Of a stretch of 50,133 nucleotides of DNA, positions 13,406 to 48,984 are shown piece by piece. A program made the position numbers and the translations under genes. This DNA comes from an archaeon (GTDB taxonomy: Archaea; Micrarchaeota; Micrarchaeia; Anstonellales; Anstonellaceae): assembly GCA_020056305.1 (NCBI GenBank), contig JAGVIA010000016.1, positions 1 through 50,133 of the forward strand, in the 5' to 3' direction. Numbering within the stretch: the stretch's first letter is position 1; each line of letters starts with the position of its first letter. The notes beneath the pieces are model-generated. The model had not been told where the DNA came from, did no database searches, and worked only from the letters and a program-made list of their open reading frames with translations.

Positions 13406-13459
13406 TGCTCCCTGGCTGGCGTTTATAAACATTTTCTGCATTATTAGGGAGCGACCAGT

Positions 13460-16826: not shown

Positions 16827-16901
16827 AAAACAGGAAGGCGAACGCCAATTAAGTGCCATCAAAAAAAGAAAGAAACTGCCCAAAAATCAGGCAGAGCCGC
16901 G

Positions 16902-18239: not shown

Positions 18240-18341
18240 ATCGAAAAGCGGCTATAAAGCAATACTCTTTGTTTTTTGCAAAATCACGGCCCGCCGCTGC
18301 GATAGGCAACCTATTTTAGAATTGGCTGAAAGACTTTAGCC

Positions 18342-19430: not shown

Positions 19431-19453
19431 CCAGGAAAGCAATGAGAGCAGCC

Positions 19454-19870: not shown

Positions 19871-19921
19871 CTAAAACACCTCTTTTTCCTCTGCATTCCC
19901 CTCTTTATATTACCTTCCGCA

Positions 19922-28410: not shown

Positions 28411-28824
28411 TCATGCAAATCCCAAATGCGATTTGTCCATCAATATTATAACCCGCACGCCTTGGTTTCGCAATATTGCCTTCAATTCCGTGTCAGTTGT
28501 GCAGACAACCGCATCCATTGCCTTTGCATTCTGCACAAACCAAACGTCTGCTGTTTTTTTCACTCCGCTTCCTTGCCCTTGTTTCTTTTTATCTTTTTCC
28601 GTCAAGATGGCTATTTTCTTTTTTTCAATGACGCCAAGCGCGCTCTTTGCGGCAATCGACCTTCTCGCATTCCCCCTTGCCATTGCCTCAAGCTCATTTA
28701 GCACCGCCTGCGGCACTGACGGCACAAATCCCTCATTCATCACGCGCGACAGCTCGGTAAAAATATCCACGCCCCGCTCAAAGGGCAGCAGGAGGAAGCT
28801 GGTGTCAAGGAGCACAAGTTTCAT
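28411..28824 (-). CDS. PIN-domain protein, Fcf1/Utp24-like (COG1412-type)
   Basis: The sequence runs MKLVLLDTSFLL ... VPQAVLNELE ... VVCTTDTELK ... The acidic PIN residues are in the expected order. The start is the internal ATG at 28824. Confidence 0.75.
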   Translation of the reverse strand: MKLVLLDTSFLLLPFERGVDIFTELSRVMNEGFVPSVPQAVLNELEAMARGNARRSIAAKSALGVIEKKKIAILTEKDKKKQGQGSGVKKTADVWFVQNAKAMDAVVCTTDTELKAILRNQGVRVIILMDKSHLGFA

Positions 28825-28888
28825 TGCCACATTCACAAATTCAATGCTTAAAAATTCGCACTCGCCACGTTTTTCCGCCACCACACAT

Positions 28889-28902
28889 TATATTTATAAA
28901 GT
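28889..28902 (+). promoter_or_regulatory. Candidate TATA box for the 28920 gene (leaderless geometry)
   Basis: The sequence ttatatttataaag is centred about 25 nt upstream of the ATG at 28920. Confidence 0.45.
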
Positions 28903-28919
28903 CTGAATGTTATAGCAAG

Positions 28920-30996: not shown

Positions 30997-31167
30997 GCGA
31001 CCAACAGAACGGGAAAACTGGAAAGTGAATGCATAGCGAAGCTGCCAAATGCAAAAAGAAAACCGCAAGCCAAAATGGAACGCGCGCATGCCCATCCCGG
31101 TGCGCATTTTTTGCCGCGCGCAAGCCCGATAACACCGTTTTTAATCCGTTTGCTTCCAAATACTTCC

Positions 31168-31773
31168 ATGAAACCAATCATAATTATTGCAGCCCTTTCG
31201 CTGCTTTTGCTTTTCGCAGGCTGCACCCAGACAAAAGTCCAGGTTGACGAATGGAAAGGCGATGACGGCCACTGGTACCGCGGGGCAAAGGATGCCACAG
31301 TCACGCTCCTTGAATTCTCTGACTTCCAGTGCCCGTTCTGCGGCAAGGCACAGCCGACAATTGACCGCATCCTTGCAACTTATGGCAACAAGATAAAATT
31401 CTCATTCCGCCACTTCCCACTTGAGCAGATACACCCATATGCGCTGCAGGCATCATATGCCGCAGAATGCGCAGGGGACGAGGACAAGTTCTGGGCAATG
31501 CACGACAAGCTATTCGCAAACCAAAATGCCCTGACACAAGCAAACCTGATCGCATATGGAAAAGAGCTTGGGCTTGATGAAGCGAAGTTTTCAGCATGCA
31601 TAAACTCTGATGAGAAGCAGGCACTAATTGACGCAGATATGACGGATGGCGAGGACGCCGGGATACAGGGCACGCCGACATTCATGGTGAACAACGTGAA
31701 AATTGTAGGCGCGGAAAGCTACGAGAAATTCTCATCGGTAATAGATGCAGAACTGAAAAGAACGGCAACATAA
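31168..31773 (+). CDS. DsbA-family thiol:disulfide oxidoreductase, secreted or lipoprotein-like
   Basis: The internal ATG gives MKPIIIIAALSLLLLFAGC (a lipobox-like signal). The thioredoxin-fold active site is FSDFQCPFCGK, and GTPTFMVNN lies near the C-terminus. Confidence 0.8.
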   Translation: MKPIIIIAALSLLLLFAGCTQTKVQVDEWKGDDGHWYRGAKDATVTLLEFSDFQCPFCGKAQPTIDRILATYGNKIKFSFRHFPLEQIHPYALQASYAAECAGDEDKFWAMHDKLFANQNALTQANLIAYGKELGLDEAKFSACINSDEKQALIDADMTDGEDAGIQGTPTFMVNNVKIVGAESYEKFSSVIDAELKRTAT

Positions 31774-34025: not shown

Positions 34026-34174
34026 TTTCCTGCCGGAAAATGCATCAGACGTTGCCTGCGAGGCAACGCTGACGCTCAAATGGGACGCATTTTTGCGCTG
34101 CAAAAATCGCGTTGGGGATGCCACGGATAAACTTTCCCAAAGCCGTTAATAAAACCGCCTCCATAACCAGATTC

Positions 34175-35248
34175 ATGCTCAAGCCCGATTCGAAATTCGC
34201 AAGCCCCAGAACAATCGTGCTAAATGTCACATTCTCCATCCTCGCCCTTGGCATCATCTTTTTTTTCGTGGACATCGATGCAACGGTTGCGCAGCTCTCA
34301 TCCGCCAACATTCCCCTTTTCATTGCGGCATTTGGCATCTATTTCCTCGTGAACGGCACCATGATTGTGAGGATAAAACTAATTCTCGCGCACATGGAAG
34401 AGCGCATGTCCTGGGCAAAGGTGCTCCTCTGCCACTACTCCGGCATGCTCGCATCCGATTTCACCCCTGCGCGAAGCGGCTATTTCGCAACGGCATTCGC
34501 GCTCTCCTCAAATGGCGTGCCCTTGCCAAAATCAATGACTGCGATACTTGGCCCGCAGCTCTTTGACTTTTTGCTAAAAGTCACTGCCGGCATCATTTCC
34601 ACCATATATATACTGAATTTCCTCGGAATCGGGCTTGAGGGGGCGGGGCTGCTTTCGCTTGCCGCAGGAGTCATCGCAATAATTGGGATGATCGCATTTG
34701 GGGCGCTTCTCCTTTTCTCGCCCGCATTCCTGCGCTTTTTGGAAAAAATCCTCCCGCGCCTTCCATTTGGCAATTTTGCGCTCACTTTCATAGAGGGCAT
34801 GCAGACGCAGTCAAAATCCATACTTGCGCTTCTGCCCCAGATATTCGCCATTATGGCAGTGAGCTGGGCGCTCAAGGGCTTTGAATGGTATCTCATTTCC
34901 GAGTCGCTTGGGATCAAGCTAAATTTCCCCTACCACCCACTTCTCTTTTTCATGTTCCTCCAGCCGTTCATCACCATCCTGCAATTCGTTCCGCTGCCCA
35001 CAGTCGCAGGCGCCGGCTTTTCCGAGGCAGGCGCGCTCGCCGTGCTCGGCCTCTTCGGAGTTGCCGCGCCCCAGGCAGCGGCATTCGCGCTTCTCTCCCG
35101 CTTCATCATGATAATGCAGGACATAATCGGCATGGTTGAGCTGCGGCGGCTGGATTTTTCCGCAATCTGCGGGCAAAGCCCGCAGAGCAGTCGAGCGAAG
35201 CTCGACTCAATAGCAAAAAACGCGAACCAGAACCAGCCAAAGCAATAA
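34175..35248 (+). CDS. UPF0104 / LPG-synthase-TM (flippase-like) membrane protein
   Basis: It is polytopic, and the N-terminal region fits the family pattern. The last roughly 28 codons are built from two palindromic hairpins (35166-35207). Confidence 0.55.
   Translation: MLKPDSKFASPRTIVLNVTFSILALGIIFFFVDIDATVAQLSSANIPLFIAAFGIYFLVNGTMIVRIKLILAHMEERMSWAKVLLCHYSGMLASDFTPARSGYFATAFALSSNGVPLPKSMTAILGPQLFDFLLKVTAGIISTIYILNFLGIGLEGAGLLSLAAGVIAIIGMIAFGALLLFSPAFLRFLEKILPRLPFGNFALTFIEGMQTQSKSILALLPQIFAIMAVSWALKGFEWYLISESLGIKLNFPYHPLLFFMFLQPFITILQFVPLPTVAGAGFSEAGALAVLGLFGVAAPQAAAFALLSRFIMIMQDIIGMVELRRLDFSAICGQSPQSSRAKLDSIAKNANQNQPKQ
35166..35207. repeat. Two adjacent perfect hairpins inside the 3' end of the ORF
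   Basis: The first is tctgcgggc-aaa-gcccgcaga (35166-35186). The second is agtcgagc-gaa-gctcgact (35189-35207), which is identical to 49173-49191. Confidence 0.85.
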
Positions 35249-35273: not shown

Positions 35274-36416
35274 ATGCGGCAGATTTCAAAAAGCGCCCTC
35301 CTATTGCTCTTTTTCATCCCGCATCTTGCATTTTCCGCCTATTTTGCCCAGCCCGCATACCTTGCCGCATCAAGAATCGCCGGAAACCAAACATTCACCT
35401 ACCTCAATTTCACGCCCGACAATGTTTCCGCATATTATCTCGTGAGCATGGGCGGCGAGGAGAAATTCCTCGTCTGGGTGCACCCCGTGCTTCCGATGGA
35501 AGGCCTTTTTGTTGCCGCAGAGCCCGTGCTTGAGGAGAGCCATGCGGCGTCAATACTGGCACAAATGTATTCCTCAAACGGCGCAGATATTTCCGCCCTC
35601 TTGCAGCTTGGCCAAACGCACGCCCTCGTGCAAAAATTCTCCGCCTCGCGCAAAAGCGACGAGCGCAAGTGTGACATTTATCTCGGGCTTGATGAGCACA
35701 ACTGCACTGATTTTGATTCGTGCCAGAAGGCATGCTACAGCCGCACGTCATTCTGCCAGCCACTTGCCCTTGGCATCGGGCGGCCGCTTATTGGCGCAAT
35801 CATGAATTACTCCGATGGCAAGCGCAACATAACCTCTCTGCTTGAAACAGAGGAGGTAATTTACGCGCTGCTTATGGCAAACCAGAGCGCAGGGAATTTC
35901 GATGCCTACTGGCAGGCAGTGCTTGCAATCGATGCAAACGCCGGCAAAATCAATTCAAATCCCCTCTTCACCGCCTACCAGCTGTGCTACCCAATCAACG
36001 CAAGCGCGCTTTCCGCCGCAAAGCAGCTGCTTGCATCAATGCGCGCCAAGGCATACCCCCTTCTTGCAGTGAAAACGCGCGCCCGCGATTACACCGAATT
36101 TGCAAGGGCGCGCTGGAACAATTCGCTTCCAATCATAGTGCAGGGGGAAATTCCCGGGCGTGCAGGCGCATCCAATTTCTCCCTTATTCCGCTCGCACGC
36201 CAAGCCGGCGGCGCAGCCTTCATTGCAAACATGATTGGGCCATTTGATGAGAGCTCTCTTCAGCTCGCAGCCGCACTGGCGGCACTGTCCGGCGTCGGCA
36301 TAGGCATCGCAATGGCTGTCGCATACGCGATTGTGCGCCACAGCCCGCGCTCCGGCGGCGCATCCCGCAGCGCACGGCAAAAGCCGTCCTCCGCAAAGCC
36401 CGACGGAGCGCCATAA
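35274..36416 (+). CDS. Secreted, C-terminally anchored Cys-motif protein; paralogue A of the 42497 gene
   Basis: It has a signal-like MRQISKSALLLLFFIPHLAFSA and the conserved block KCDIYLGLDEHNCTDFDSCQKACYSRTSFCQPLALGIGRPLI. A C-terminal TM segment is present. Confidence 0.7.
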   Translation: MRQISKSALLLLFFIPHLAFSAYFAQPAYLAASRIAGNQTFTYLNFTPDNVSAYYLVSMGGEEKFLVWVHPVLPMEGLFVAAEPVLEESHAASILAQMYSSNGADISALLQLGQTHALVQKFSASRKSDERKCDIYLGLDEHNCTDFDSCQKACYSRTSFCQPLALGIGRPLIGAIMNYSDGKRNITSLLETEEVIYALLMANQSAGNFDAYWQAVLAIDANAGKINSNPLFTAYQLCYPINASALSAAKQLLASMRAKAYPLLAVKTRARDYTEFARARWNNSLPIIVQGEIPGRAGASNFSLIPLARQAGGAAFIANMIGPFDESSLQLAAALAALSGVGIGIAMAVAYAIVRHSPRSGGASRSARQKPSSAKPDGAP

Positions 36417-36447
36417 ATTCCATTGTCCGCCGGAAGCCCTACAAAAA

Positions 36448-36459
36448 CATTTATAAACC
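36448..36459 (+). promoter_or_regulatory. Candidate TATA box for the giant surface-protein gene; implies a 5' UTR of about 100 nt
   Basis: catttataaacc lies about 130 nt upstream of the ATG at 36584. A gggggtg SD sits at 36571-36577. A 7-bp hairpin (atcgggg...ccccgat) lies in the leader. Confidence 0.35.
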
Positions 36460-36583
36460 GTATATCCGTATAGATGCCATGCATTCGGTTACTACGTCGT
36501 ATCGGGGAGCTTTTTCCCCCGATGCCGGAAAGTTCGGGAGGATTTTCCGCCGGTAGTTTCATGATAATTTGGGGGTGTCAGTT

Positions 36584-39500
36584 ATGAATTTCATGTCGAA
36601 AATGGCTGTTTTTGTGCTTGCTCTGGCAATGCTTGCGGGCGCGAATTTTGCCATGGCATACATACAAACCAACGCCACCGTCTTATCTGCGGACCGTACG
36701 GGCCTTGGATATACCAACCTCTCCACCTTCTATATAATTGAGGATATTGCAGGTCAGATAAACGTCACCAACGCCACCGCGAGAAACCTTTCAATCATCC
36801 TCCCGGTTGGATTGGAATTCAACACTGCCCTCACCGCTGGCTATATCGCGAACGTGACCACAGGCAACCTTAACTTCAGCGGCGGCTTTAACTATTCGAA
36901 CATCACGTATGTCGGCACCCGGCTGGCAATGCTTAGCAACTTTTCCGGCCCCACTGCAAATAATTCAACAATCGCCAGCCAAATCCGCATATTCGGCCTC
37001 CAGATTCGCGCCCCAGATGGAAATGGGACAGCAACAGTCACGAATCTTACAATAACCCTTAATGAGAGCATGTGGGTCTTAGGAGTCCTCGTGAACAGCA
37101 GCGTGAACATTACTAACATTTCCGTAACCAACGCAACAGTCGGAATTGTCAACATCACCCCTGGCAACTTCTCGAATGTGACATTAACACAAGTTACAAC
37201 ACTTGGATATGCTGGCTCTGCAGTCAACTTCACTGCACAGACGACAGACAGATACGGCAACACAAACGCCAGTGCATACACCCTGCGTGTCGCGTCAAAT
37301 TCAAGCAATGCAAGGTTCAGAGTCGACTCTGGTGCTTGGCTGAGCCTGCCCCAATACCTTGTAACCGCCTTGCCTAGCGGCCGCAAGATGTTCCAAATCA
37401 ATGACACCGTTAACGAAACAATAATGATATATGTAAACGGCACGAGCGGCGAAATCTTTGATTATGCAAGCGGCAACAGCTCCATGACACTATCAATCCT
37501 TACTGACAACGCCAGCATCATAAACAACCTAACTGCGGCAAACAAGACTGCGGGCACCCAATATGTCATCAGGGTCAATGTCACGGACATTTGGAATAAC
37601 GCCATAGCAGGCAAGCTCCTCAACATCTCAATCAACGGCTCAACCGCCACCGCGGCTCTTGCGAATGTGACTGGTGCCCTTGGCTTCAATTCATTCCTGT
37701 CCAACGGCACTGGTGGCGCCCCAAACGTGTCTGCCAGCACCCTCATCATAACGACGGATGCCAACGGCGTTGCAACAGCAACGCTCAACGTTTCGCAATT
37801 CGTGGGCGAAACAAACATCTCGATAAACATGACAAAAGGCGATGGCGGCGATAGCGTCTATAACTGGTCCCTAGTAACCATCAACAGCACTGACACCGAG
37901 GTGCCCTATCTTGTCACTGCCACCAATCTTGTCGCCGGCCAGTGGATTAAGGGCACATACAACCTCACTGGCAATGCGAGCGACAATGTCCGCGTGGGAA
38001 ATGTGACAATAAACATGAGCAACCTTTGGTCGTTTCCTGCAAACATCACATGGAACGGCTCGGACAACCGCGGCCAGAACATAAACTGGTCATACCTCAT
38101 TAACACGTCTCTTTTTGCAGATTCCGCCACGCTGCCAATAATAGTCAACGCATCAGACTCCAGCGGCAACCAGAATGTTTCGCTGATTGGAACACTGAGC
38201 ATTGACAACACCGTGCCCAACGTAAGTTATTATAACCGGGTCGGCGCGGCAGTCTCAAGCAACACCACTATTATGTACACGAATGCCAACCTCACAAACT
38301 ACATGGCAATCCTGATACTGGATCCGTCTTCGGGCGTGAACTCGTCAGGCGCCACTGCCTACTTGAGCTCGATAAACATCTCCTTCAACACCACTGGCGC
38401 ATACAACTACAGCATAACGAGCAACGCGGCAAACACCAGCCTCAACGTCACCATCAACGTGACCTTCCCGGTCACCGGCCTCTATGTAATGAACATGAAC
38501 ATAACCGACAACGCCGGCAACACGAACAGGACCCAGCGTTACTTCTACGTGGACATGGTTCCGCCGTTTGAGATAAACTTCACGAACATGGCGGCAATAA
38601 ACAACACTGCCGGGCTTGGGTTAAACATTACCAACGAAGCGAACATCACCATCGACCTGTCAATACAGGATGCGGTGAACATGTCAAACGAGACCGACAC
38701 CCTCAACGTCATAATACAGGTGAACAACAAGACGTCCGGCACCACTGCCTGCAACTTCTCAGCAATGAATGAGTTTGAGGTTGGCATAGTGAACGCATCC
38801 TGCGCGTTCAACATGTCCGGCGTCAACACGAACGGCGGCATCTACCAGATAAGCGCAATCGCATTTGACAGGGCGAACAACTCGCTTGTCGGCGTGCGCA
38901 TACTGGCAACCGGCAGCGCATACGCAGCCGCAACCGCTGCCAACCCGGTCAACATCTCAGGAAGCAGGGTGCAGATACTGGGCGCCAACACAACAGGCCT
39001 TGGCGGCGGCACGGTTTACATCAACCTGACCGTCAACTCAACATCTACTGCGTCACTGCCAAACATCCTGCGCAAGAAGTACCTGCTGAACTCGAGCCTT
39101 GCGGACAACTCGTTCCTGTTCAACATATCGTTCGCATACACGGCAAGCGAGCTTACCGAGCTTGGGATTTCGGATGAAAGCATGCTCGTGCCCATGTTCT
39201 ACAACACCACGTCAGCCAGATGGGAGCGCGTGCCCGGCTATGTCAACACCACCGACTTCACCGGCACTGACGCGCAGGGCAACAGCGTCGCATACGCAGG
39301 CAAGATAGTGATGACCAACCTCAAGCACTTCACCGAGTTCAGCGGCTTGGCAGGCGTTGAGGCAAACGTCACAAACTGCTCGGCAACGTATGGCAACGTG
39401 AGCAACTTTGTTGTGAACGGCACAGGGACAGTAGCGGGCATCGAGCACTGTGTGCTTGCATTCACCCTCTACAACCCGCTCAACCACGGCGTCAACCTGA

Positions 39501-41059
39501 CATGGGTGAACATCACGCTTGTCAACCTCTCTGTGGCAGACACGAATAACATCACAAACGTCACCCTCTACAATGATACCACATACCTAAACGGCACATT
39601 CGGCTACGGCCTGTTCGGCGCAGCAGTGACTGCCAACTTCTCAATAGACCCGGGCACGGTCGCAGGCGCCATAATACCGGCGGCAAGCTCCCGTACCTTC
39701 TATGTCAAATACAACATCAATCTCACTGCAACCGACAACAAGACTCTTGGCGCAATAATAGGCATCGGAGGGCTCAACATAACCAATGCCTCGGTGCCAG
39801 TAACCTTAAACGGCACCCTTGACGGATTGCGCAACGTTTCAACCGACATGTTCGCGCCGGTGTTCTTCAACAACGTCTCCACGAGCTGGAGAAACGTTTC
39901 CCAGTACGTCGGCGTAAACGTTTCGGACCTGCTGGCGCGCCAGAATGTCACAAGCGCAACCTACTGCACAGCCAGCAACGGAAACGGAAGCGGCGGAAGC
40001 TGCAACGCGTCAGCTGGCGCATCGTTCATAATTAACACTGCCTCGGGCTGCAACGGCCTTTCTGGCACATGCGCCAACGGCACGCTGGTGCTCAACCTGA
40101 CAAGCTCGGGCAACATCACGGTGAACATCACGGCAGTCGATTCGGCAGGCAACCGAAATAACTCGGTATTCTTCGTGCTTGTCGACCTCTCGGCACCGGA
40201 CATCACCAACCTCACGCCCGGTGACAACGCCATCGTGAACTCCTCGCCAACCGTTAACGCGCTGGCAACGGACACGGTGTCCGGCATTGCGAACCTTACC
40301 CTATACATAAACGGCTCGCAGGCAGGCAACAAGACCAACCTGTACAACGTGTCAGCCGCAGCTGGGGTTAACATCTTCAACTTTACCACGCTTGCAGGAG
40401 GCACGCACAACATAAGCCTTATCGCAGAGAATGGCGCAGGCAGCAGAACCAACCGAAGCTGGTCGTTCACAGTGAACGGCTCGTTTAGCCTCTGGGTGGT
40501 GATTGACCTCGCCTCGGGCTTCAACCTGATTGCGATACCGATGAACGTCACCAACAACTCGGTGAAGTCGGTGGTCTCGGGCATAAACGACAGCCTGGTG
40601 AATGTCTGGCACTATGACCCGACAAACGGCTACGTGGTGTACAACACCAACCAGAGCGTGCCCAACACCCTGACAAGCATCATACCGGGGCAGGCATACT
40701 TCCTGAACATGTCTGCGCCTGCCAACCTTACCATATACGGCTTCACGCCGAGCTTGGGCAGCGCGCCTGACTACCCGACAAGGGCGGCGTTCAGCCTCAT
40801 TGTTGGCTGGAACATGGTGGGCGCATTCATAAATGCAACAAACCCTGCCAACGGGTCTGCAATGGTGAACTCCTGCATGATGTTCAGGGACATAGGAGGC
40901 AGCACCCTCGTGACCGGGCTGACGGGCTACAACTCGTCAATGGGCTACTACAGTGTCATACAGTCGTCATCCCCCTGCCCGTCGTCGTCGCCGAACCTCG
41001 TGCAGGGCTGGGGCTACTGGACATACGCCAGCTCAGCAGGCACATACTACCAATACTAA
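36584..41059 (+). CDS. Giant secreted protein saturated with N-glycosylation sequons (candidate S-layer or outer surface-lattice protein)
   Basis: An ATG at 36584 follows an SD. The signal peptide is MNFMSKMAVFVLALAMLAGANFAMA. The protein is about 1491 aa with roughly 130 N-x-S/T sequons by my own eye count. It has no C-terminal TM segment and ends in an aromatic-rich motif (WGYWTYASSAGTYYQY). Confidence 0.8.
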   Translation: MNFMSKMAVFVLALAMLAGANFAMAYIQTNATVLSADRTGLGYTNLSTFYIIEDIAGQINVTNATARNLSIILPVGLEFNTALTAGYIANVTTGNLNFSGGFNYSNITYVGTRLAMLSNFSGPTANNSTIASQIRIFGLQIRAPDGNGTATVTNLTITLNESMWVLGVLVNSSVNITNISVTNATVGIVNITPGNFSNVTLTQVTTLGYAGSAVNFTAQTTDRYGNTNASAYTLRVASNSSNARFRVDSGAWLSLPQYLVTALPSGRKMFQINDTVNETIMIYVNGTSGEIFDYASGNSSMTLSILTDNASIINNLTAANKTAGTQYVIRVNVTDIWNNAIAGKLLNISINGSTATAALANVTGALGFNSFLSNGTGGAPNVSASTLIITTDANGVATATLNVSQFVGETNISINMTKGDGGDSVYNWSLVTINSTDTEVPYLVTATNLVAGQWIKGTYNLTGNASDNVRVGNVTINMSNLWSFPANITWNGSDNRGQNINWSYLINTSLFADSATLPIIVNASDSSGNQNVSLIGTLSIDNTVPNVSYYNRVGAAVSSNTTIMYTNANLTNYMAILILDPSSGVNSSGATAYLSSINISFNTTGAYNYSITSNAANTSLNVTINVTFPVTGLYVMNMNITDNAGNTNRTQRYFYVDMVPPFEINFTNMAAINNTAGLGLNITNEANITIDLSIQDAVNMSNETDTLNVIIQVNNKTSGTTACNFSAMNEFEVGIVNASCAFNMSGVNTNGGIYQISAIAFDRANNSLVGVRILATGSAYAAATAANPVNISGSRVQILGANTTGLGGGTVYINLTVNSTSTASLPNILRKKYLLNSSLADNSFLFNISFAYTASELTELGISDESMLVPMFYNTTSARWERVPGYVNTTDFTGTDAQGNSVAYAGKIVMTNLKHFTEFSGLAGVEANVTNCSATYGNVSNFVVNGTGTVAGIEHCVLAFTLYNPLNHGVNLTWVNITLVNLSVADTNNITNVTLYNDTTYLNGTFGYGLFGAAVTANFSIDPGTVAGAIIPAASSRTFYVKYNINLTATDNKTLGAIIGIGGLNITNASVPVTLNGTLDGLRNVSTDMFAPVFFNNVSTSWRNVSQYVGVNVSDLLARQNVTSATYCTASNGNGSGGSCNASAGASFIINTASGCNGLSGTCANGTLVLNLTSSGNITVNITAVDSAGNRNNSVFFVLVDLSAPDITNLTPGDNAIVNSSPTVNALATDTVSGIANLTLYINGSQAGNKTNLYNVSAAAGVNIFNFTTLAGGTHNISLIAENGAGSRTNRSWSFTVNGSFSLWVVIDLASGFNLIAIPMNVTNNSVKSVVSGINDSLVNVWHYDPTNGYVVYNTNQSVPNTLTSIIPGQAYFLNMSAPANLTIYGFTPSLGSAPDYPTRAAFSLIVGWNMVGAFINATNPANGSAMVNSCMMFRDIGGSTLVTGLTGYNSSMGYYSVIQSSSPCPSSSPNLVQGWGYWTYASSAGTYYQY

Positions 41060-41069
41060 GCCTGCCCCC

Positions 41070-41092
41070 TTTCTTTTTTATTTTTTTAATTC
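41070..41092 (+). terminator. T-rich tract after the giant gene (terminator or attenuator candidate)
   Basis: tttctttttta tttttttaat tc starts 11 nt after the stop. A near-duplicate motif occurs at 42409-42429. Confidence 0.4.
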
Positions 41093-41116
41093 ATGTTCCA
41101 TCTGGAGGTGCGATTA

Positions 41117-42403
41117 ATGCGATTGAATATTTTGGCTCTTTTGCTGCTTTCCCTTGCGGCAGTTTCATTTGCACAGGCAGCACTGCCACAAAGCCACTAT
41201 TTCTTTGGCAACATAACCGCCGACACCGGCGTCAGCATGCTGGGGCAGACTCTCACTGCGACAGTGGGCGCAACATCCACGACCGCAACGACGGCAGTGA
41301 CAACTGCGCCTGACGGCACAACATACAACTACAACGTCATGGTCAACCGCGCACCCGGCGACACTACAAATACTACGGTTCTCTTCTCGATAAACAGCTA
41401 CAATTTCATGAACAGCACGTTTGTGCATTTAGGCAGGACGCACCTTAACGGCCAGTTCCCGGCTGCGCAGCTTCCGGTTACCCCCACACCATCAACTCCA
41501 CCTGGCACCGGCGGCAGCACTGGCGGCTCAAGCGGCACCGGCTCTGGCGGGGGCGCGGCAGGCGGCGCTGGCGCAACGGGCAGCGGCTCATCAGCAAACA
41601 CTGTTTCAGTTGACATTGGCGGCGGCACAAGCTGCAACATCTCCGTTACCCGCGAGATAAACAGCGGCTCAGGCAGGACCGAGCTGACTACGACGCTGCA
41701 GAACAACGGCGGGGGCGCCTGCACCATTTCCGCATTTGACATTGCGGACACGTTCCCGGAGAACTTCACGACCGACCTGTCTGAAGTCAATTTCTCAATA
41801 AATCCGGCATCCAAGTCCGGCCAGATCGCAACCTGGCGTTTCTACCAATTCCGCCCGGGCGAGTCAATCATACTCATCTACACCTTCCCGCGCGAGATAG
41901 CCCCGGCAAAGATACGCGAGTGGGGCCTTCCAACAATAACCCTGCAGGCTGGCGTCGCGCCCGAGGGCGGCATTGTGACGCTTGATGTGGCATCGACCGG
42001 AGTCATCGGCATGCCAATCACAATAACGGTAAAGAAGGGCGGCGTGCCCCTTGCAGGCGCAACAATCGAGATTACCACGCCCCAGCGCCAGAAAATCACC
42101 CTTGTGGCAGGTCCTGACGGCACTGTTTCATTCACGCCAACTCTTGCTGGCACATACACCTATGCAGTGCCTGGCTACACGCTTGCTGCAGCTGTTTCTA
42201 CATCTGTTTTGACAGAGGCTGCGCCGCCGCCAACACCAGCCCCAACCCCAGGTCCAACCCAGCTGCCTCCGGAGCAGCCTCCTGCGCCGGCGCAAGGCTT
42301 CCCCTGGCTCACAATAGTGCTTGTTGTGGCAGGCATTGCAGTAATAGGCGCGGTTGCCTGGGCAGCGCTTGTCTACTTCAAGGGCAGGAAAAAGGGCATC
42401 TAA
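41117..42403 (+). CDS. Secreted protein with a P/T/G/S linker, a beta-sandwich-like domain and a C-terminal TM anchor (candidate membrane stalk partner)
   Basis: A ggaggtg SD lies upstream of the ATG at 41117. The signal peptide is MRLNILALLLLSLAAVSFAQA. The linker is PVTPTPSTPPGTGGSTGGSSGTGSGGGAAGGAGATGSGSS. A CarboxypepD_reg-like segment (GVPLAGATIEITTP...GPDGTVSFTPTLAGTYTY) is present. The C-terminus is WLTIVLVVAGIAVIGAVAWAALVYFKGRKKGI. Confidence 0.75.
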   Translation: MRLNILALLLLSLAAVSFAQAALPQSHYFFGNITADTGVSMLGQTLTATVGATSTTATTAVTTAPDGTTYNYNVMVNRAPGDTTNTTVLFSINSYNFMNSTFVHLGRTHLNGQFPAAQLPVTPTPSTPPGTGGSTGGSSGTGSGGGAAGGAGATGSGSSANTVSVDIGGGTSCNISVTREINSGSGRTELTTTLQNNGGGACTISAFDIADTFPENFTTDLSEVNFSINPASKSGQIATWRFYQFRPGESIILIYTFPREIAPAKIREWGLPTITLQAGVAPEGGIVTLDVASTGVIGMPITITVKKGGVPLAGATIEITTPQRQKITLVAGPDGTVSFTPTLAGTYTYAVPGYTLAAAVSTSVLTEAAPPPTPAPTPGPTQLPPEQPPAPAQGFPWLTIVLVVAGIAVIGAVAWAALVYFKGRKKGI

Positions 42404-42408
42404 GCGCC

Positions 42409-42429
42409 CTTCCTTTTTTATTTTAATTC
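42409..42429 (+). terminator. T-rich tract after the 41117 gene, followed by a 9-bp hairpin
   Basis: The tract reads cttcctttttta ttttaattc. A hairpin follows: attccgcat-(13 nt)-atgcggaat (42425-42455). Confidence 0.4.
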
Positions 42430-42496
42430 CGCATAGCGCAAGCAATAATGCGGAATGCCAAGAAGCAATAAAAAGGCGAATCCCAAATCAATATCC

Positions 42497-43663
42497 ATGC
42501 GGCATTTTCCAATCGCGCTCTCAATCGCATTTCTCTGCCTGCCCATTTTCGCGTCAGCAGAATATGACGGCGTCGCAGGGGCCCTCATTTTCCAGATGCT
42601 CCTGCCAAACGAGACATTCTCATATTCCAATTTCACAGAGGGCGAAGTTGCCTACTACCTGGTCAGCATAGGCGGCACTGAGCGCTTTTTGGTGCGCGTA
42701 GGGCCCGTCCCGCCTGAGGGAAGGGGGCAGCCGCTGCTTGCCGCAGAGCCGGTCCTCGAAGCCTCCTCTGCTGTTGCGGCGCTGAAAAAAATACGCTGGC
42801 AAAACGGCTCCAATCTCTCAGAGCTTGACAAGCTCGAATCAATACACCTGCTAATAGCGGCGTTCGAGTCCTCCCGCACTCCAGGCGAGCACAAGTGCGA
42901 CATCCTGATTGGAATGGACGAGCACCACTGCATCGACTTTGAGTCGTGCCAGAAATCCTGCTACAGCCGCACGTCATTTTGCCAGCCCCTTGCCCTTGGC
43001 ATCGGAAGGCCGCTAATCGAGGCGATGTTTGACTACTCCAACGGCACCAAGAATCTCACACTGCTTCTTGCAGAGGAGGACGCCCGCCATGCCGCCCTCT
43101 CCTCGCAAAGAACAGCCCAGAACCTTGATGACTACCTATCCACTCTCACTGCAATAAATGTGCAGGCGACGAAAATAAACAACAACATGGTCTTTTACGG
43201 CTACCAGATATGCTTCCCTCCAAACTATGACATGGCATCGCTTACGCGCGCCAAGCTTGAGCTGCTTTCAATCTACGCAAAGGCAATACCAATCCTGCGG
43301 GCTGACGAGGAGGGCAGGCAGATGGCTGAATCTGCAAGCTCCCGCTATCGGGCCGGTGGCGAGCGCAATGTTGTGCCAGAAAAGCAAACTGCGCCCCAAA
43401 TTCCAAACGGCGGCGGAACGAATGGCACAAACGTTTCCATCAACGCATCTGAAAACAAAACAATTGCCAATGGCATCCCAAGCACGGCTGGCGTTCCCTC
43501 CAATGCAATGGCGCCAGGCGCCTCTTCGGCTTCCAGCGGCGCGCAAAGCCAGCTTATACTGATTTCGGCTGCGCTAGTGCTTGCACTGCTAGGCGCGGCG
43601 TATTTCCTTGTTGCCAAAAAGAAAAGCAAAAGCGCAAAGCAAGAAATGCCAAAGAAGAAATAA
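42497..43663 (+). CDS. Secreted, C-terminally anchored Cys-motif protein; paralogue B of the 35274 gene
   Basis: It has a signal-like MRHFPIALSIAFLCLPIFASA and the block KCDILIGMDEHHCIDFESCQKSCYSRTSFCQPLALGIGRPLI. A C-terminal TM segment and a Lys-rich tail are present. Confidence 0.7.
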   Translation: MRHFPIALSIAFLCLPIFASAEYDGVAGALIFQMLLPNETFSYSNFTEGEVAYYLVSIGGTERFLVRVGPVPPEGRGQPLLAAEPVLEASSAVAALKKIRWQNGSNLSELDKLESIHLLIAAFESSRTPGEHKCDILIGMDEHHCIDFESCQKSCYSRTSFCQPLALGIGRPLIEAMFDYSNGTKNLTLLLAEEDARHAALSSQRTAQNLDDYLSTLTAINVQATKINNNMVFYGYQICFPPNYDMASLTRAKLELLSIYAKAIPILRADEEGRQMAESASSRYRAGGERNVVPEKQTAPQIPNGGGTNGTNVSINASENKTIANGIPSTAGVPSNAMAPGASSASSGAQSQLILISAALVLALLGAAYFLVAKKKSKSAKQEMPKKK

Positions 43664-43765: not shown

Positions 43766-46270
43766 ATGGCAAAAATACGCACCGGGATAATAGGCGTCGG
43801 CAACTGCTTTGCAGGGCTTGCGCAGGGAATCGAATTCTACAAGAGGCAGCCGGAAAAGAAAGTGGTCGGGCTGATGCACGAGAAAATAGGCGGCTATTCC
43901 TGGGAAGACCTGGAATTCTCCTGCGCGTTCGACGTTGGCAAGTCAAAGGTCGGCCTGCCCCTGCACAAGGCGATATACGCCGAGCCAAACCTGGTTTTCT
44001 GGCTAAAGGATCTTCCAAAGTCAGACACCATTGTGATGGAAGCCCCGGTGCTTGACGGCGTTGGCATCTGGGTGCAGAACAAGGTGGACCCGATTAAAAG
44101 CAAAAAAACAGACGCGCAGCTCCGCAAGGAGATAATTGCCGAAATAAAGCGCACGAAGACCGAAATACTTGTCAATTACCTGCCTGTCGGCTCGCAGAAA
44201 TCCACGGAGTTCTGGGCGCAAATTGCCCTTGAATGCGGCTGCGCGTTTGTGAACTGCATCCCGGTTTTCATCGCAAGCGATGCGGCATGGGAAGCCAAAT
44301 TCAAAAAAGCAGGAGTGCCACTTATCGGCGACGACATAAAGGCTCAGGTGGGCGCAACAATAGTGCACCGCACGCTCGCAAGATTGTGCGACGACAGGGG
44401 AGCAAGAATAATTAAAACATACCAAATTAACATTGGCGGAAACAGCGTTGCCGGCGACCAGGAAATACTGCTGGTGCAAAATGGAAAACTCGCGCGGGCA
44501 AGAATAGGCGATTTTGTGGACAGAATGATGGCGGTATACGGCCAACGCAGGGCGGATGGGAAGGAAGAAGTCGACACGTCTGCAACGGGCCAAAAGATTG
44601 AGTGCTTTACCATAGATGAAAATTTCAACGCGGTCACTGCGGAAGTCTCTCACCTCGTAAGGCATTCGCTGAACAATGAACTCTACGAAATCGAAACTAG
44701 CGAAGGAAGGAAAATCAAGATAACCGCAGACCACAACGTGTTTGTCCTAAATGAAGATGGCGGGCTTCTGGAAGCCCCCATCTCAAAGCTCAAAGAAAAG
44801 GAAAGCATGATAGCCGTGCCCTGCCGCCTGCCAATGCAAATGGGGCGCGAGCCTGTCTCAATCAGCCTGCTTCCATACGCAAAAGACCTGTTTGCTCAGG
44901 GCATAGACTCAAACGGCAACATCAAAGTCCACAACCATCCGGAAATGAAAATACCAATGGAGCTTCAAATAACCGACGAGCTTCTCCAGATAAGCGGGCT
45001 TTGGCTTGCAGACGGCAGCTTTGACCGCGAAGGCTCAAGCAACTTGGAGATTGCCTGCGGAAACGACGAAGAGTGCATGGATTTGATAGATGATTTTGCA
45101 TCTGCGTACAACATCAACTACCAAGTAAGGGGGCAAAAGCAGGTTGCAGTGCGCCTGATGTCAAAAACCATGTCAAAAATATTCCGCCTGGCGCTGGGAT
45201 TAGGCGGCAATTCCTACACCAAGCGCGTGCCAGACTGGTTCTTCAGCCTATCCGAGAGGCATATCGCACTTGTGCTTCGCGGCTACATGAGCGGCGATGG
45301 CACCGTAACCGGCAGGCAGATTCGCTGGACAACCGCATCCGAGGGCCTGGCAGAGGACATGCGCACGCTCCTTCTGCGCCTGGGCATAAACTCCTCAACA
45401 TTCAGAGAGGATTACTCGCACAAGGCAGGCAAAAGCTCATACAAGACAAACCTGCCATACATAACGCACGGCATAATATCCTCGAAAGAGGATGCGGAAA
45501 GATTCATCGAGAAGGTAGGTTTCATCCAGTCCAGCAAAAACCAGAAAGCGCTTGCAGCTGCGGCCACGCTCACAAAGGGCAATACGCATCTCATCCCCGC
45601 AATAGGGCTTCTCTCGGAATCCGGCATAAAATCTTCAAATCCGCATAACCCGCCATCGCTGCGCGCGCATACTGTCCTCTCCCAACTGGACGGGGTGCAG
45701 GACTTGAACACCAAGGGCAAAATAAGGAACATGTGCAACGCAGACACGCGCTTTCTAAAGATAAAATCCATTCGCAGGCTTCCCCCCAAGCAGCAGTATG
45801 TCTACGATCTGTCCGTGCCCGGCTACCAGCGCTTTGTCTGCTCAAACATCCTTGTGCACAATACCGATTTCCTCAACATGAAGGAGCAGGAGCGGCTTGC
45901 CTCAAAGCGCATAAGCAAAACCGAATCAGTGCAAAGCCAGCTGCGCGAGCGCCTTCCGCCTGAAAACATCTACATAGGCCCGTCTGATTTCATCCCTTTT
46001 TTGGGCAACACAAAAATAATGTTCATGAGGATAGAAGGCCACATGTGGGCTGACATCCCGTTCAACATGGAAGTGCGCCTTGAAGTGGATGACAAGGCGA
46101 ATTCAGCTGGCGTTGTCATTGATGCTGTGCGCTGCGCAAAGCTTGCCTTGGAGCGAAAGCAGGGCGGCGCAATCATCCCGACCTCTGCATATTTCATGAA
46201 GCACCCGCCGGTGCAGATGACCGACCCAAAAGCAATGGAAGAGACGGAGAAATTCATAATGGGGAAATAG
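43766..46270 (+). CDS. myo-Inositol-1-phosphate synthase (archaeal short type) interrupted by an intein
   Basis: The N-extein is MAKIRTGIIGVGNCFAGLAQGIEFY...YQINIGGN. The C-extein is TDFLNMKEQERLASKRISKTESVQS... The exteins sum to 361 aa, a normal length for archaeal MIPS. Confidence 0.85.
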   Translation: MAKIRTGIIGVGNCFAGLAQGIEFYKRQPEKKVVGLMHEKIGGYSWEDLEFSCAFDVGKSKVGLPLHKAIYAEPNLVFWLKDLPKSDTIVMEAPVLDGVGIWVQNKVDPIKSKKTDAQLRKEIIAEIKRTKTEILVNYLPVGSQKSTEFWAQIALECGCAFVNCIPVFIASDAAWEAKFKKAGVPLIGDDIKAQVGATIVHRTLARLCDDRGARIIKTYQINIGGNSVAGDQEILLVQNGKLARARIGDFVDRMMAVYGQRRADGKEEVDTSATGQKIECFTIDENFNAVTAEVSHLVRHSLNNELYEIETSEGRKIKITADHNVFVLNEDGGLLEAPISKLKEKESMIAVPCRLPMQMGREPVSISLLPYAKDLFAQGIDSNGNIKVHNHPEMKIPMELQITDELLQISGLWLADGSFDREGSSNLEIACGNDEECMDLIDDFASAYNINYQVRGQKQVAVRLMSKTMSKIFRLALGLGGNSYTKRVPDWFFSLSERHIALVLRGYMSGDGTVTGRQIRWTTASEGLAEDMRTLLLRLGINSSTFREDYSHKAGKSSYKTNLPYITHGIISSKEDAERFIEKVGFIQSSKNQKALAAAATLTKGNTHLIPAIGLLSESGIKSSNPHNPPSLRAHTVLSQLDGVQDLNTKGKIRNMCNADTRFLKIKSIRRLPPKQQYVYDLSVPGYQRFVCSNILVHNTDFLNMKEQERLASKRISKTESVQSQLRERLPPENIYIGPSDFIPFLGNTKIMFMRIEGHMWADIPFNMEVRLEVDDKANSAGVVIDAVRCAKLALERKQGGAIIPTSAYFMKHPPVQMTDPKAMEETEKFIMGK
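44444..45862 (+). mobile_element. Intein (473 aa) with a LAGLIDADG-type homing-endonuclease domain
   Basis: It starts with Ser (SVAGDQEILLV, block A). Block B is a TxxH (KITADHNVFV). Two LAGLIDADG-like motifs are present (GLWLADGSF and RGYMSGDGTV). It ends VYDLSVPGYQRFVCSNILVHN, followed by Thr at +1. Confidence 0.85.
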
Positions 46271-46347
46271 GGAATGCGGCGCCAAATGGAAAATGTGCAG
46301 CCGGACGAGACTGGCAATAATCCGCCCTGCTGCTTTGCGTGATAAAC

Positions 46348-46947
46348 ATGCTCAAGGAAAAATTCTCTGGATTGCAATCAAGCGCAGGAAAAGCACTATC
46401 TTTCCTGCCTTTTACGCCAAACCAGCTCACTGCAATTTCCGTCCTCTTTGCAATCGCCTGTTTTTTCTTCCTTGCAACCCAGCAACTTATCCTTGCCATC
46501 ATCTGTTTCCTTGCAGCAGTTCTCCTTGACATGATAGATGGTGCAATCGCGCGCGAAAAGAAGATGGCAAGCGCAAAAGGCGCCTTTCTTGACGGCGTAG
46601 CGGACCGCCTCGTGGAGTTTTTCGTGCTATTCGGGCTTGTTTTTTACGATTTGCCAAATTTCATTCTGCCCGCATTTCTCTGGCTCTTTGTAATCGTATT
46701 TTTCGGAAGCGCAATGACCGCCTTTTGCAAGGCGTATGCGGATCATCGCGGCGCGCTCTCAAAGGAAAAGCTTGCGCGCTTTGGGGGGATGTTCAACCGG
46801 CCTGAGCGCATGGCAATGATTTTCCTCGTGCTTCTTGCCGCAGGCTTCATGCCCGCAGCTGCAACGGCGCTTCTTGCAATAACGGCGGCGCTCTCAGTGA
46901 TGTCAGTTGCTGAAATTATTCTATATGTTTGGATTTCGTCGGAATGA
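46348..46947 (+). CDS. CDP-alcohol phosphatidyltransferase; probable archaetidylinositol-phosphate synthase
   Basis: The motif DMIDGAIAR-x8-GAFLDGVADR is the D-G-x2-A-R...G-x3-D-x3-D signature. It is a multi-pass membrane protein and lies directly downstream of MIPS. The start is ATG 46348; the track uses GTG 46339. Confidence 0.8.
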   Translation: MLKEKFSGLQSSAGKALSFLPFTPNQLTAISVLFAIACFFFLATQQLILAIICFLAAVLLDMIDGAIAREKKMASAKGAFLDGVADRLVEFFVLFGLVFYDLPNFILPAFLWLFVIVFFGSAMTAFCKAYADHRGALSKEKLARFGGMFNRPERMAMIFLVLLAAGFMPAAATALLAITAALSVMSVAEIILYVWISSE

Positions 46948-47436: not shown

Positions 47437-48984
47437 TTATCCAGCCTGCTTGTAAAGAAGGCCTCTTCCTTTTTGCGTAAGGCGGTAAAATACGAATTTC
47501 TTGCCCGGCTCCTCCATGCGCTCAACAAGCCCGGCATCAATGAGCTTGTCAAGGTGCTCAACAATAGTCGCCTTGCTCCGCTTCAGCCTCCTGCTCAAGT
47601 CTGTTGGTATCTTTTCGCTTTGCACAAGCTCGTTTAGTATGCCAAGCCTAGTCTCGTTCATGAGCATGCGCGTGGACTCCACCTGCTCGGCAGCAGGCGC
47701 GCGGAACATGAGCACCGCAATCAGTGCAAGCGCAATTGCAAATACTGCGATAACTGGCGCAATAATCGCCAGCGGAAACTCATCCTTTTTCTGCCCAGAA
47801 GCTGCATCGGCAGCGCTTTTGTCAGCCATGCCAAATGCAGGCACGCCTAACTTCTCCGAGCCCACATCCCCTGTTTCCTGCGCAGGCTGCGGAGCCCGTG
47901 CAGGCGTTTCCACCTGCGGCACTGCACCAGTGCCTGACCGGAACCCGCTGTCGGAAAACAACACCGAGCCGTCCGTCGCATCAATGACAACGCGCGCGTC
48001 AATAGGCCTGTAGCGCTCGCCTTGATAATTGCCCTTTTGGCCGAACACCCATGCAAGCCTCATCCTGCCATTTTGGTAATCATACCAGTATGCAAGCACC
48101 GAATCCATGCCGGCTGCATCAAAATAGCCCCCCCATTCTGATGCGCTGCCTATGGCTGTAAGCCTTGCATTGCCCTCTGCAATGGCAGGCGTTGTCCCAA
48201 GCAGCGCAAAATCAAAGTATCTGGCACTGTCGCATTGGCTCTTTGCAATTCCCTGCGGCACTACCAGATAGCATAGCCCCTGCATTTTTCCATTAAGGAA
48301 ATGTGCCTTTGCCTCGTACATCAGAATCGGGATGCCCTTGTATTGTTGGGCAAAGAAAACAGTTGACACTTCCCGCCCGCTGCAGTTCTCGTACCTCACT
48401 CCGCTCACTTCAGTTGAAAGCCCGTTTCCAGAAAGGTTTGAAATTGAAAATCCGTTCGGGTTGAGCAACCCCTCAACAAACGAGATTTTGTTGCCAGCCG
48501 GGAGCGTTGAATCGCATACGGCGGGTTTGGGCGGCGTTGCCGAAGACGCATCAAGGCAGTTGCCAACAATTGAGAAATTGGGCGCGTTATCTATGTGCAT
48601 CCACGAAAGCGGAAACACGAATTCTTGTTCTGGCGAATTAAGCTCAACAGACCTGTAATAGGTATCCGGGGTCCTGTAATTAGTCACATTCCAAACCTCA
48701 ATCTGCTTCTGGCCATAGGCTAGGTCGAATACGGCATTTCCATCAACTGCTGTTTTGGCGTTCCTAGTTCCAAGAAGACGCCCATCAGCAGCTTCTGTGA
48801 CCTTTACATCTGCGTTTGCTATGCACTGGCCTGTGGAATTGTCAATTACCCTTACAACGAGTGTTCCATGCAAAGACGGAGGTGGCGCGTCTTCACTCCC
48901 GTTTCCTTCCACCAGCTGTGCCGTTGCTGCTTGCAGCATGAGCAGCATGCTAAGAAAAATCACGAGGAGGTCTCTTTTTACCAT
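47437..48984 (-). CDS. Single-pass membrane protein with an extracytoplasmic domain and a cytoplasmic C-terminal ArsR-like wHTH
   Basis: The signal peptide is MVKRDLLVIFLSMLLMLQAATAQ. A CarboxypepD_reg-like segment (GTLVVRVIDNSTGQCIANADVKVTE...DGNAVFDL) is present. The TM segment is LAIIAPVIAVFAIALALIAVLMF. It is followed by ETRLGILNELVQSEKIPTDLSRRLKRSKATIVEHLDKLIDAGLVERMEEPGKKFVFYRLT. Confidence 0.75.
   Translation of the reverse strand: MVKRDLLVIFLSMLLMLQAATAQLVEGNGSEDAPPPSLHGTLVVRVIDNSTGQCIANADVKVTEAADGRLLGTRNAKTAVDGNAVFDLAYGQKQIEVWNVTNYRTPDTYYRSVELNSPEQEFVFPLSWMHIDNAPNFSIVGNCLDASSATPPKPAVCDSTLPAGNKISFVEGLLNPNGFSISNLSGNGLSTEVSGVRYENCSGREVSTVFFAQQYKGIPILMYEAKAHFLNGKMQGLCYLVVPQGIAKSQCDSARYFDFALLGTTPAIAEGNARLTAIGSASEWGGYFDAAGMDSVLAYWYDYQNGRMRLAWVFGQKGNYQGERYRPIDARVVIDATDGSVLFSDSGFRSGTGAVPQVETPARAPQPAQETGDVGSEKLGVPAFGMADKSAADAASGQKKDEFPLAIIAPVIAVFAIALALIAVLMFRAPAAEQVESTRMLMNETRLGILNELVQSEKIPTDLSRRLKRSKATIVEHLDKLIDAGLVERMEEPGKKFVFYRLTQKGRGLLYKQAG

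Follow-up and report, generated by a model that had tools for sequence, protein, structure and literature searches.

Does a gene for a large, secreted, sequon-rich protein, followed by a gene for a smaller membrane-anchored protein, encode the surface layer (S-layer) of a micrarchaeon? The question is raised by four genes of contig JAGVIA010000016.1, from an archaeon of the Anstonellaceae (Micrarchaeota). They lie within a stretch of 50,133 nucleotides (nt), here called the window, whose numbering is used for all coordinates. The original prediction, made from the sequence alone, was that these genes encode a candidate two-component surface lattice and two accessory or anchoring proteins dedicated to it. 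The genes, A to D, each code for a secreted protein, with sizes given in amino acids (aa):

35274..36416, + strand: gene A, open reading frame (ORF) of 380 aa, member of the A/D family
36584..41059, + strand: gene B, ATG start, a secreted, anchorless, all-β giant of 1,491 aa, 156 kDa and pI 4.7
40424..41056, + strand: domain X, the C-terminal ~210 aa of B, with two 'GWN…GYW' units, proposed docking end
41117..42403, + strand: gene C, ATG start, a membrane anchor of 428 aa
42497..43663, + strand: gene D, 388 aa, paralogue of A and conserved neighbor of the MIPS-AIPS genes

All four ORFs were found in a row on the same strand from 35274 to 43663, as predicted. No sequence family was recognized, and none of the four proteins has a match above threshold in Pfam, NCBIfam or the PDB sequences. 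We propose, with a probability of roughly 55%, that B and C constitute a dispensable, fast-evolving, two-part N-glycosylated surface protein and not a lattice, and that A and D are duplicated general envelope proteins. The cassette is real and uncharacterized; the A/D family and the junction domains, X of B and Y of C, are the parts most worth attention.

Gene B encodes a signal peptide that ends …NFAMA/Y, and no C-terminal transmembrane (TM) helix was detected in its product. The sequence harbors 132 N-X-S/T sequons against 41±5 expected from 1,000 shuffles (z = 17). These take up 67% of its asparagines, and the load is 8.8 per 100 aa. The reverse motif S/T-X-N occurs 40 times for 42 expected (z = -0.4), and neither the i+1 nor the i+3 spacing is enriched. 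The excess thus reflects directional selection for N-glycosylation sites, and the same controls rule out an artefact of composition, β-strand periodicity or Asn ladders. The signal peptide, the TM-less C-terminus and the sequon excess agree with the description of B as a secreted, anchorless, sequon-saturated protein of about 1491 aa. Five xD-x-x-P junction motifs of the immunoglobulin (Ig) type were observed, as were Big_3_4 and OmpL47 matches, below threshold only. An AlphaFold2 (AF2) model of residues 1000-1491, built without an alignment, was unusable, with a predicted local distance difference test (pLDDT) score of 37. A word-based homology search among 5.8 billion proteins matched only B itself, a search with domain X alone returned nothing, and comparison with 16 syntenic or neighboring giants gave no match. 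By sequence, B appears to be an orphan that has diverged beyond recognition. A metagenome scan with the X alignment gave a sole, weak match (E = 5e-7 among candidates) between the first 'GWN…' unit and the C-terminal end of a secreted protein of 1,264 aa. This protein is encoded on a contig of bacterial appearance (L025 2479-6273, + strand; L-numbers designate the loci that were fetched, with ORFs from greedy ORF calling). Secreted proteins may widely carry the GWN unit as a C-terminal module.

Each part that had been predicted for C, namely a signal peptide, a P/T/G/S linker, a β-sandwich-like domain, a C-terminal TM segment and a basic tail, was located. The signal peptide ends …FAQA/A and is followed by domain Y, an N-terminal 'FYG' β domain (aa 19-125, nt 41171-41491), and by a linker rich in P/T and then in G/S (aa ~112-160). 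A membrane-proximal β-sandwich that is conserved in Micrarchaeota (aa 155-290, nt 41579-41986) precedes a prealbumin/Ig-like domain (aa 290-372) with weak Filamin, SpaA and DUF4198 matches at aa ~296-356. The protein ends in a Pro-rich linker, a TM helix (aa 391-423, nt 42287-42385) and a KGRKKGI tail. This anchor module recurs in Micrarchaeota: two Cys are conserved in its β-sandwich, the prealbumin-like Ig domain may be present or not, and a Pro-rich linker leads to a TM helix that is followed by a K/R tail. Residues 155-290 of C match proteins of nine loci (L001, L005, L007, L009, L010, L015, L016, L017 and L028) at 1e-10 to 1e-21, and in L005 the module is also carried by an S8 peptidase. 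It is a generic Micrarchaeota module, found C-terminally on many large sequon-rich surface proteins as well as on the S8 peptidase. PGF-CTERM, archaeosortase and LPXTG sorting signals were not detected. Profile searches of PDB with the alignments of A/D, C and X gave only linker, TM and low-complexity artefacts, such as single-chain antibody fragment (scFv) linkers and β-dystroglycan.

The relation between B and C emerges from the locus that they occupy. In relatives, the position directly upstream of the genes for a D-like protein, myo-inositol-1-phosphate synthase (MIPS) and a CDP-alcohol phosphatidyltransferase (AIPS-like, hereafter AIPS) is taken either by a single anchored giant or by an anchorless plus anchored pair:

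L011: single large TM-anchored protein upstream of the D-like and MIPS genes, 1,518 aa
L016: single TM-anchored protein at the same place, 1,420 aa
L010: single TM-anchored protein at the same place, 1,075 aa
L001: single TM-anchored protein at the same place, at least 673 aa
L017: split pair upstream of the D-like and MIPS genes, 1,079 and 529 aa, each with its own signal peptide
L028: split pair at the same place, 558 and 514 aa, each with its own signal peptide

The anchorless 1,079-aa protein of L017 aligns with residues 700-1049 of the L011 giant (1e-35), and the anchored 529-aa protein with residues 1218-1410 (1e-27). Both L017 halves are colinear with the fused protein of L001, and the L017 and L028 pairs are alike end to end, both junction domains included. 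C of the window matches the C-terminal part of the anchored L001 protein at 1e-30. Because colinear fused and split forms occur at a conserved locus, we infer that B and C arose by fission from one anchored surface protein of a single chain. At the junction, X has a counterpart at the C-terminus of a CARDB protein of L010, which is anchorless and has 913 aa (E = 4e-10, z = 17.5), and the next gene there encodes a TM-anchored 278-aa protein whose N-terminus matches Y (E = 8e-15, z = 19). Among ~290 proteins of 25 fetched loci, X and Y are encoded by adjacent genes in the window and in L010 only. The predicted logic of an anchorless body with an anchored partner is thus supported twice, by fission and fusion at the same locus in relatives and by the X/Y adjacency in a second locus.

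In the mechanism that we propose, B would be exported by the Sec pathway, lose its signal peptide and be glycosylated at many of its 132 sequons, with no anchor of its own; a GT4 (AglH-like) gene in the window represents the N-glycosylation capacity. C would be exported separately, be held in the membrane by its C-terminal TM helix and basic tail, and stand off the membrane on its Pro/Thr and Gly/Ser linkers and two β-sandwich domains. Domain Y would be presented to B, and X, the double 'GWN…GYW' domain, would dock on it. The complex would be a dispensable, fast-evolving decoration of the surface, for instance a glycan-shielded adhesin or a host-contact or protective fiber, placed in or beyond the conserved PF05123-type S-layer and distinct from the lattice. 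A and D would be lineage-specific duplicates from a Micrarchaeota-wide family of C-terminally anchored, disulfide-stapled helical-bundle ectodomains, whose ancestral place is immediately before MIPS and AIPS, the genes for inositol phospholipids. They probably act as general envelope receptor or organizer proteins and not as dedicated B/C subunits.

Could the four genes instead encode independent surface proteins in a variable 'surface-protein island', with no complex at all and B shed or loosely attached through glycans or the S-layer? We consider this unlikely, although it is the explanation that competes best with a two-part B/C protein. Giants located near A/D genes do differ in fold (β-helix/NosD, DUF11/HYR/Big_13 and Big_13), and many unrelated secreted ones occur there (β-helix, DUF11/HYR, S8 peptidase). 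The ~1,050-aa neighbors in L014, L021 and L023 were rejected as giants, being carbamoyl-phosphate synthase. The generic nature of the C anchor module, found on an S8 peptidase too, would also suit independent proteins, as would the separate terminators and Shine-Dalgarno (SD) sequences of B and C. Against it stand the colinear fusion and fission at the same locus, the end-to-end conservation of the L017 and L028 split pairs, and the adjacency of X and Y in 2/2 loci. In addition, a giant and its anchor are gained or lost together when L005 is compared with L026 and L027. The expression signals of B and C are the following:

36450..36457, + strand: TTTATAAA box, a perfect candidate TATA box for B, 134 nt upstream of its ATG
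36571..36577, + strand: GGGGGTG, SD-like element 7 nt upstream of the B start codon, read from the sequence
41070..41087, + strand: TTTCTTTTTTATTTTTTT, an oligo-T tract past the stop codon of B, candidate terminator or attenuator of the archaeal type, read from the sequence
41104-41110, + strand: GGAGGTG, SD of C, upstream of C

The distance of TTTATAAA from the start codon implies a leader of ~100 nt for B, so that the predicted SD and long leader of this gene are plausible. Perfect palindromic TTTATAAA boxes occur in the window at 2430, 13422, 28893, 36450 and 43738, and 5/5 are in promoter-like positions. Those at 13422, 28893 and 43738 lie ~25-40 nt upstream of start codons, which implies leaderless or short-leader mRNAs. 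Structured RNA was not found in the B leader, for which Rfam returned nothing and the predicted fold is not unusual (z = -1.25). An oligo-T tract also follows the C stop codon, and the MIPS gene has its own TATA box. The perfect TATA box, the long leader with its SD, the oligo-T terminator and the highest GC content at third codon positions (GC3) of the window together suggest that B is strongly expressed.

As for A and D, A has a Sec-type signal peptide ending …HLAFS/AY, followed by a small β domain and an ectodomain built as a six-Cys helical bundle; a disordered linker then leads to the C-terminal TM helix (aa 328-355). Its Cys core spans aa 133-161 (nt 35670-35756). An AxA-type signal peptide, six Cys and a C-terminal TM helix are common to A and D, which are 45% identical over 286 aa (E = 9e-80); an alternative upstream ATG at 42455 would extend D to 402 aa. 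The first gene had been predicted to encode a Cys-motif protein with both a signal peptide and a TM segment at the C-terminus, and the fourth gene to be its paralogue; both predictions are borne out. A profile built from A, D and one JGI homologue retrieved 172 representative clusters, and 102 of these have E ≤ 1e-10. Genome loci, found by a scan with a 13-sequence alignment, belong to Micrarchaeota or Micrarchaeia in 14/14 cases, as do all three named cluster members. The family thus appears to be restricted to Micrarchaeota, a census that is not exhaustive since most metagenomic members carry no taxon. A and D share the core KC(R/D)(V/I)L.G(T/M)D…C.D..SC…CY..TSFC.P.A.G.G plus a sixth Cys; this six-Cys motif is peculiar to the family, and the six Cys are near-invariant.

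The AF2 model of A, obtained with an 80-sequence alignment, has a pLDDT of 83.7 overall and 97-98 for aa 90-280. In it, aa 41-84 form a β element of four strands and aa 88-282 a long helical bundle; the disordered linker and the TM helix complete the model. A Foldseek search of this model against PDB and BFVD gave no match below E = 0.03. The top weak fold matches were the McpS, TorS and PilJ sensor bundles and the SabA adhesin, all non-significant (E ≥ 0.05, TM scores ≤ 0.2). A viral class-I fusogen-like reading of the helical bundle found no support, as Foldseek returned nothing significant from PDB or BFVD.

The D-like, MIPS, AIPS order is found in at least 10 Micrarchaeota loci. Genomic contexts elsewhere are diverse. 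In one paralogue clade, the genes that come next invariably encode a ~330-aa TM protein and a KaiC-like ATPase. Fusions join A/D ectodomains to a coiled-coil giant of 1,720 aa (Ca. Gugararchaeum), to a polytopic membrane protein or to cytoplasmic Roadblock/LC7 domains. Examples of these fusions and of the KaiC context are P0086, P0104, P0068 and P0087, and L018 10857-12633, L019 3124-5074 and L024 6916-8712. A family gene also overlaps the stop codon of an anchored S8 peptidase gene, and the two are probably co-transcribed or translationally coupled. In the 446-aa protein P0027 (L009 1799-3139), the β-sandwich module of C is N-terminal and fused to an A/D domain, a Rosetta-stone link between C and A/D. 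Several genomes carry two A/D paralogues. In a crude neighbor-joining tree, A and D of the window and the JGI orthologue of D share one clade, and the bracketing pair can therefore be read as a lineage-specific duplication. Since A/D genes also occur in unrelated contexts and without a giant neighbor, and the bracketing is explained by duplication, A and D are probably a general envelope component of Micrarchaeota. The predicted role as dedicated accessory or anchoring proteins of B/C is thus not supported.

One may then ask whether A and D are themselves the functional core, as extracytoplasmic sensors or receptors that signal across the membrane or as organizers of inositol-lipid domains, with B and C as their ligands or cargo. 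The Roadblock/LC7 fusions and the KaiC-like context hint at a signaling role, and the conserved MIPS-AIPS synteny, the weak McpS, TorS, PilJ and SabA fold matches and the link seen in P0027 would also fit. Yet every fold match is non-significant, and A and D themselves have short cytoplasmic tails only. The lipid-gene synteny may be an inherited order without functional coupling, the MIPS gene having its own TATA box. We consider A and D as the functional core unlikely, and a general envelope role besides a two-part B/C protein is preferred.

As for the S-layer itself, a two-component S-layer in the SlaA/SlaB manner, with B as lattice, C as stalk and A and D as dedicated accessory or anchoring proteins, is improbable, and B/C is probably not the S-layer lattice of the cell. 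The gene order, with a large anchorless glycoprotein followed by a small C-terminally anchored protein, would suit such a layer. So would the strong promoter, long leader, terminator and highest GC3 of B, and its acidic pI of 4.7 combined with a heavy sequon load. However, the S-layer of Micrarchaeota is a conserved PF05123/TIGR01564 MSTP-like protein of ~870-1,000 aa (bioRxiv 10.1101/2021.04.28.441871; 10.1101/2024.05.28.596244), orthologous throughout the phylum, whereas Pfam and NCBIfam scans at E ≤ 1 found neither PF05123 nor TIGR01564 in B, C, A or D. SLP_Mh (Micr_00292) is the top protein of the Ca. Micrarchaeum harzensis proteome (bioRxiv 10.1101/2021.04.28.441871). It has 52 BLASTp homologues in 38/49 Micrarchaeota genomes (Gfrerer et al., bioRxiv 10.1101/2021.04.28.441871); the 11/49 genomes without one count for a B/C S-layer, while the orphan status of B contrasts with S-layer proteins that BLASTp finds across the phylum.

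Micrarchaeota archaeon CG1_02_47_40 has the same layout, in which an A-like gene, the gene of a sequon-rich giant (1,825 aa) and that of a C-like anchor (544 aa) follow one another (AUJ17_04440 onwards; locus L005), and its canonical S-layer homologue OIO21789/AUJ17_01250 (PF05123) is encoded at another locus. The L005 order SNO, S8 peptidase, A-like, SOR_SNZ, gyrB is found again in L026 and L027, both of which lack the giant and its anchor. The comparison of L005 5326-18163 with L026 5511-11053 and with L027 reveals a clean presence/absence polymorphism of a 1,825-aa giant and a 544-aa anchor. Because it is missing from these otherwise syntenic loci, the pair is dispensable. In relatives, the D-like, MIPS, AIPS order is kept, and the giant-plus-anchor pair is variable. 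Together with A/D genes that lack giants and with the lack of SlaA or SlaB similarity, the PF05123-type S-layer elsewhere in a relative, the absence of the pair from two syntenic genomes and the orphan status of B speak against the surface lattice of the original prediction. The differing folds of the giants near A/D genes count against it as well, as do the strain-specific giants already noted in Mancarchaeum Mia14 (PMC5498576).

A second, strain-specific glycoprotein canopy or lattice over or replacing the MSTP-type S-layer, with A/D as a membrane 'pillar' that tethers envelope proteins to an inositol-lipid-rich membrane, is very improbable; if true, it would explain the fixed place of A/D beside MIPS-AIPS, the pillar might tether the anchorless canonical S-layer protein too, and Micrarchaeota would have an envelope architecture without described counterpart.

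Several points weigh against a two-part surface protein that is distinct from the S-layer. The binding of X to Y is one that we infer, and X and Y of the window type are known from two loci only. The junction domains of L017 and L028 resemble X and Y only by motif and by one marginal score (z = 3.1). Comparison of B with the N-terminal parts of the fused proteins gave nothing significant, the best being E = 0.001 for L001, so that the fission argument reaches the window through C and synteny and not through B. The search that left B without relatives was word-based, and may miss those of a low-complexity N/S/T-rich query such as B. The signals of B suggest a strongly expressed monocistronic gene, which would suit an S-layer gene too. 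Finally, the canonical S-layer gene was seen in the relative CG1_02_47_40, and its presence in the host itself would follow by analogy.

The surroundings of the cassette in the window include:

34112..35248, + strand: LPG_synthase_TM (flippase-like) membrane protein gene, 25 nt upstream of A
43766-46270, + strand: MIPS gene, with intein, syntenic partner of D
46339-46947, + strand: CDP-alcohol phosphatidyltransferase (AIPS-like) gene, syntenic partner of D

The LPG_synthase_TM gene and A are possibly co-transcribed; their adjacency is not kept in relatives. The neighbors of the cassette (MIPS with intein, CDP-alcohol phosphatidyltransferase, H+-PPase, DsbA-like protein) are archaeal. The order D, MIPS, AIPS, a helix-turn-helix (HTH) gene on the - strand and, further on, a histone and a DEAD helicase is the same as in Micrarchaeota contigs. 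Together with the taxon of the A/D family members, this assigns the window to a micrarchaeon (DPANN). The MIPS intein carries a LAGLIDADG endonuclease (aa ~282-699), and the window MIPS has 834 aa against 363-456 aa in relatives. In L001 (4256-5245, - strand) and L002, a free-standing ORF with a faint LAGLIDADG match lies antisense just after an intein-less MIPS gene. The 515-aa protein encoded at 47437-48984 (- strand) starts with a signal peptide or TM helix and ends in a winged helix of the ArsR type; it also has a weak CarboxypepD_reg-like domain. Its HTH part is conserved at the same syntenic position in Micrarchaeota loci, in proteins of ~230-320 aa, and it may be a membrane-tethered regulator. 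A second giant (8869-13062, - strand) is secreted, with 1,397 aa, a C-terminal TM helix and a basic tail. It is sequon-poor, unlike B (5 sequons, z = 0.4), with no Pfam match and no relative in the fetched loci. The ORFs at 20800-23283 (- strand, 827 aa) and 28824-30698 (+ strand, 624 aa) have no Pfam match and no signal peptide, and their products are probably cytoplasmic.

The AglH-like gene (Glycos_transf_4, 5577-6557, - strand) likely encodes the enzyme that initiates N-glycosylation. It adjoins a gene for a 605-aa polytopic membrane protein without Pfam match (3362-5179, - strand), possibly another glycosylation component. A DsbA-like thioredoxin gene is located at 31075-31773 (+ strand), and L010 encodes a 1,465-aa secreted protein with a DSBA domain (16458-20855, - strand). 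These proteins are consistent with an extracytoplasmic disulfide-forming system for Cys-rich ectodomains such as those of A/D.

Micrarchaeota are obligate episymbionts, and B/C and A/D offer testable handles on host contact. B/C is a test case for the reassembly of split surface proteins and for the pace of host-facing surface evolution. The A/D family, phylum-specific, with a confident predicted fold and a fixed place beside inositol-lipid genes, is a candidate core envelope component. With the C-type anchor module, the surface proteomes of metagenome-assembled genomes can be inventoried. For annotation, the SlaA/SlaB-like layout of this cassette should not be taken for an S-layer.

How does the cassette compare with known systems? 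Single-chain archaeal surface glycoproteins, such as the haloarchaeal S-layer glycoprotein, have a stalk rich in Thr and Pro that is followed by a C-terminal TM helix and a basic tail. A similar end, with a Pro/Thr-rich linker before the TM helix and K/R tail, is seen in C and in the fused relatives of L011, L016, L015 and L010, whereas body and anchor are separate polypeptides in the window and no PGF-CTERM/archaeosortase signal was detected. A/D resemble the McpS, TorS and PilJ sensors and SabA of H. pylori as long membrane-tethered helical bundles with a small β element and disulfide-clasped loops. They differ by a C-terminal anchor, the near absence of a cytoplasmic part and their own six-Cys core. 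Like B, SLP_Mh (PF05123/TIGR01564) is a secreted, glycosylated, acidic envelope protein with no obvious anchor, and its authors speculated on a separate TM 'stalk' partner (bioRxiv 10.1101/2021.04.28.441871). However, SLP_Mh has ~870-1,000 aa against 1,491 aa for B, which lacks PF05123. SLP_Mh is widely homologous while B is an orphan, and the SLP_Mh homologue of CG1_02_47_40 lies at a locus apart from the cassette.

For 'Ca. Mancarchaeum acidiphilum' Mia14, at least 8 secreted proteins of the surface have been described that are strain-specific and for which a part in host interaction was proposed (Golyshina et al. 2017, PMC5498576). They are very large and take up a notable share of a tiny genome. 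B shares their large size, signal peptide and lack of homologues, with adhesion-type domains below threshold only. The Mia14 giants carry recognizable PKD, Kelch, YVTN and CARDB domains, whereas B has none above threshold. The anchorless/anchor split and a load of 8.8 sequons per 100 aa are not described for them in the passages of PMC5498576 drawn on here.

The closest likeness in layout is to SlaA/SlaB of Sulfolobales, a large anchorless N-glycosylated protein followed by a smaller one with a signal peptide, β-sandwiches and a C-terminal TM helix. The predicted slaA-slaB-like gene order is indeed observed, as B ends at 41059 and C starts directly downstream at 41117 on the same strand. PDB holds SlaA structures. 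B gave no PDB sequence match at E ≤ 1 and no Pfam match, and C matched SlaB neither by sequence nor by profile, which agrees with the statement that no SlaA/SlaB sequence motif is visible. SlaB has a coiled-coil stalk, C instead Pro/Thr and Gly/Ser linkers; the host of SlaA/SlaB belongs to Thermoproteota, that of B/C to Micrarchaeota. Moreover, the B/C type of pair is dispensable in relatives, in a phylum that has a separate conserved S-layer family. B and C may work like an anchorless/anchored pair such as SlaA/SlaB, but are apparently not members of the SlaA/SlaB family.

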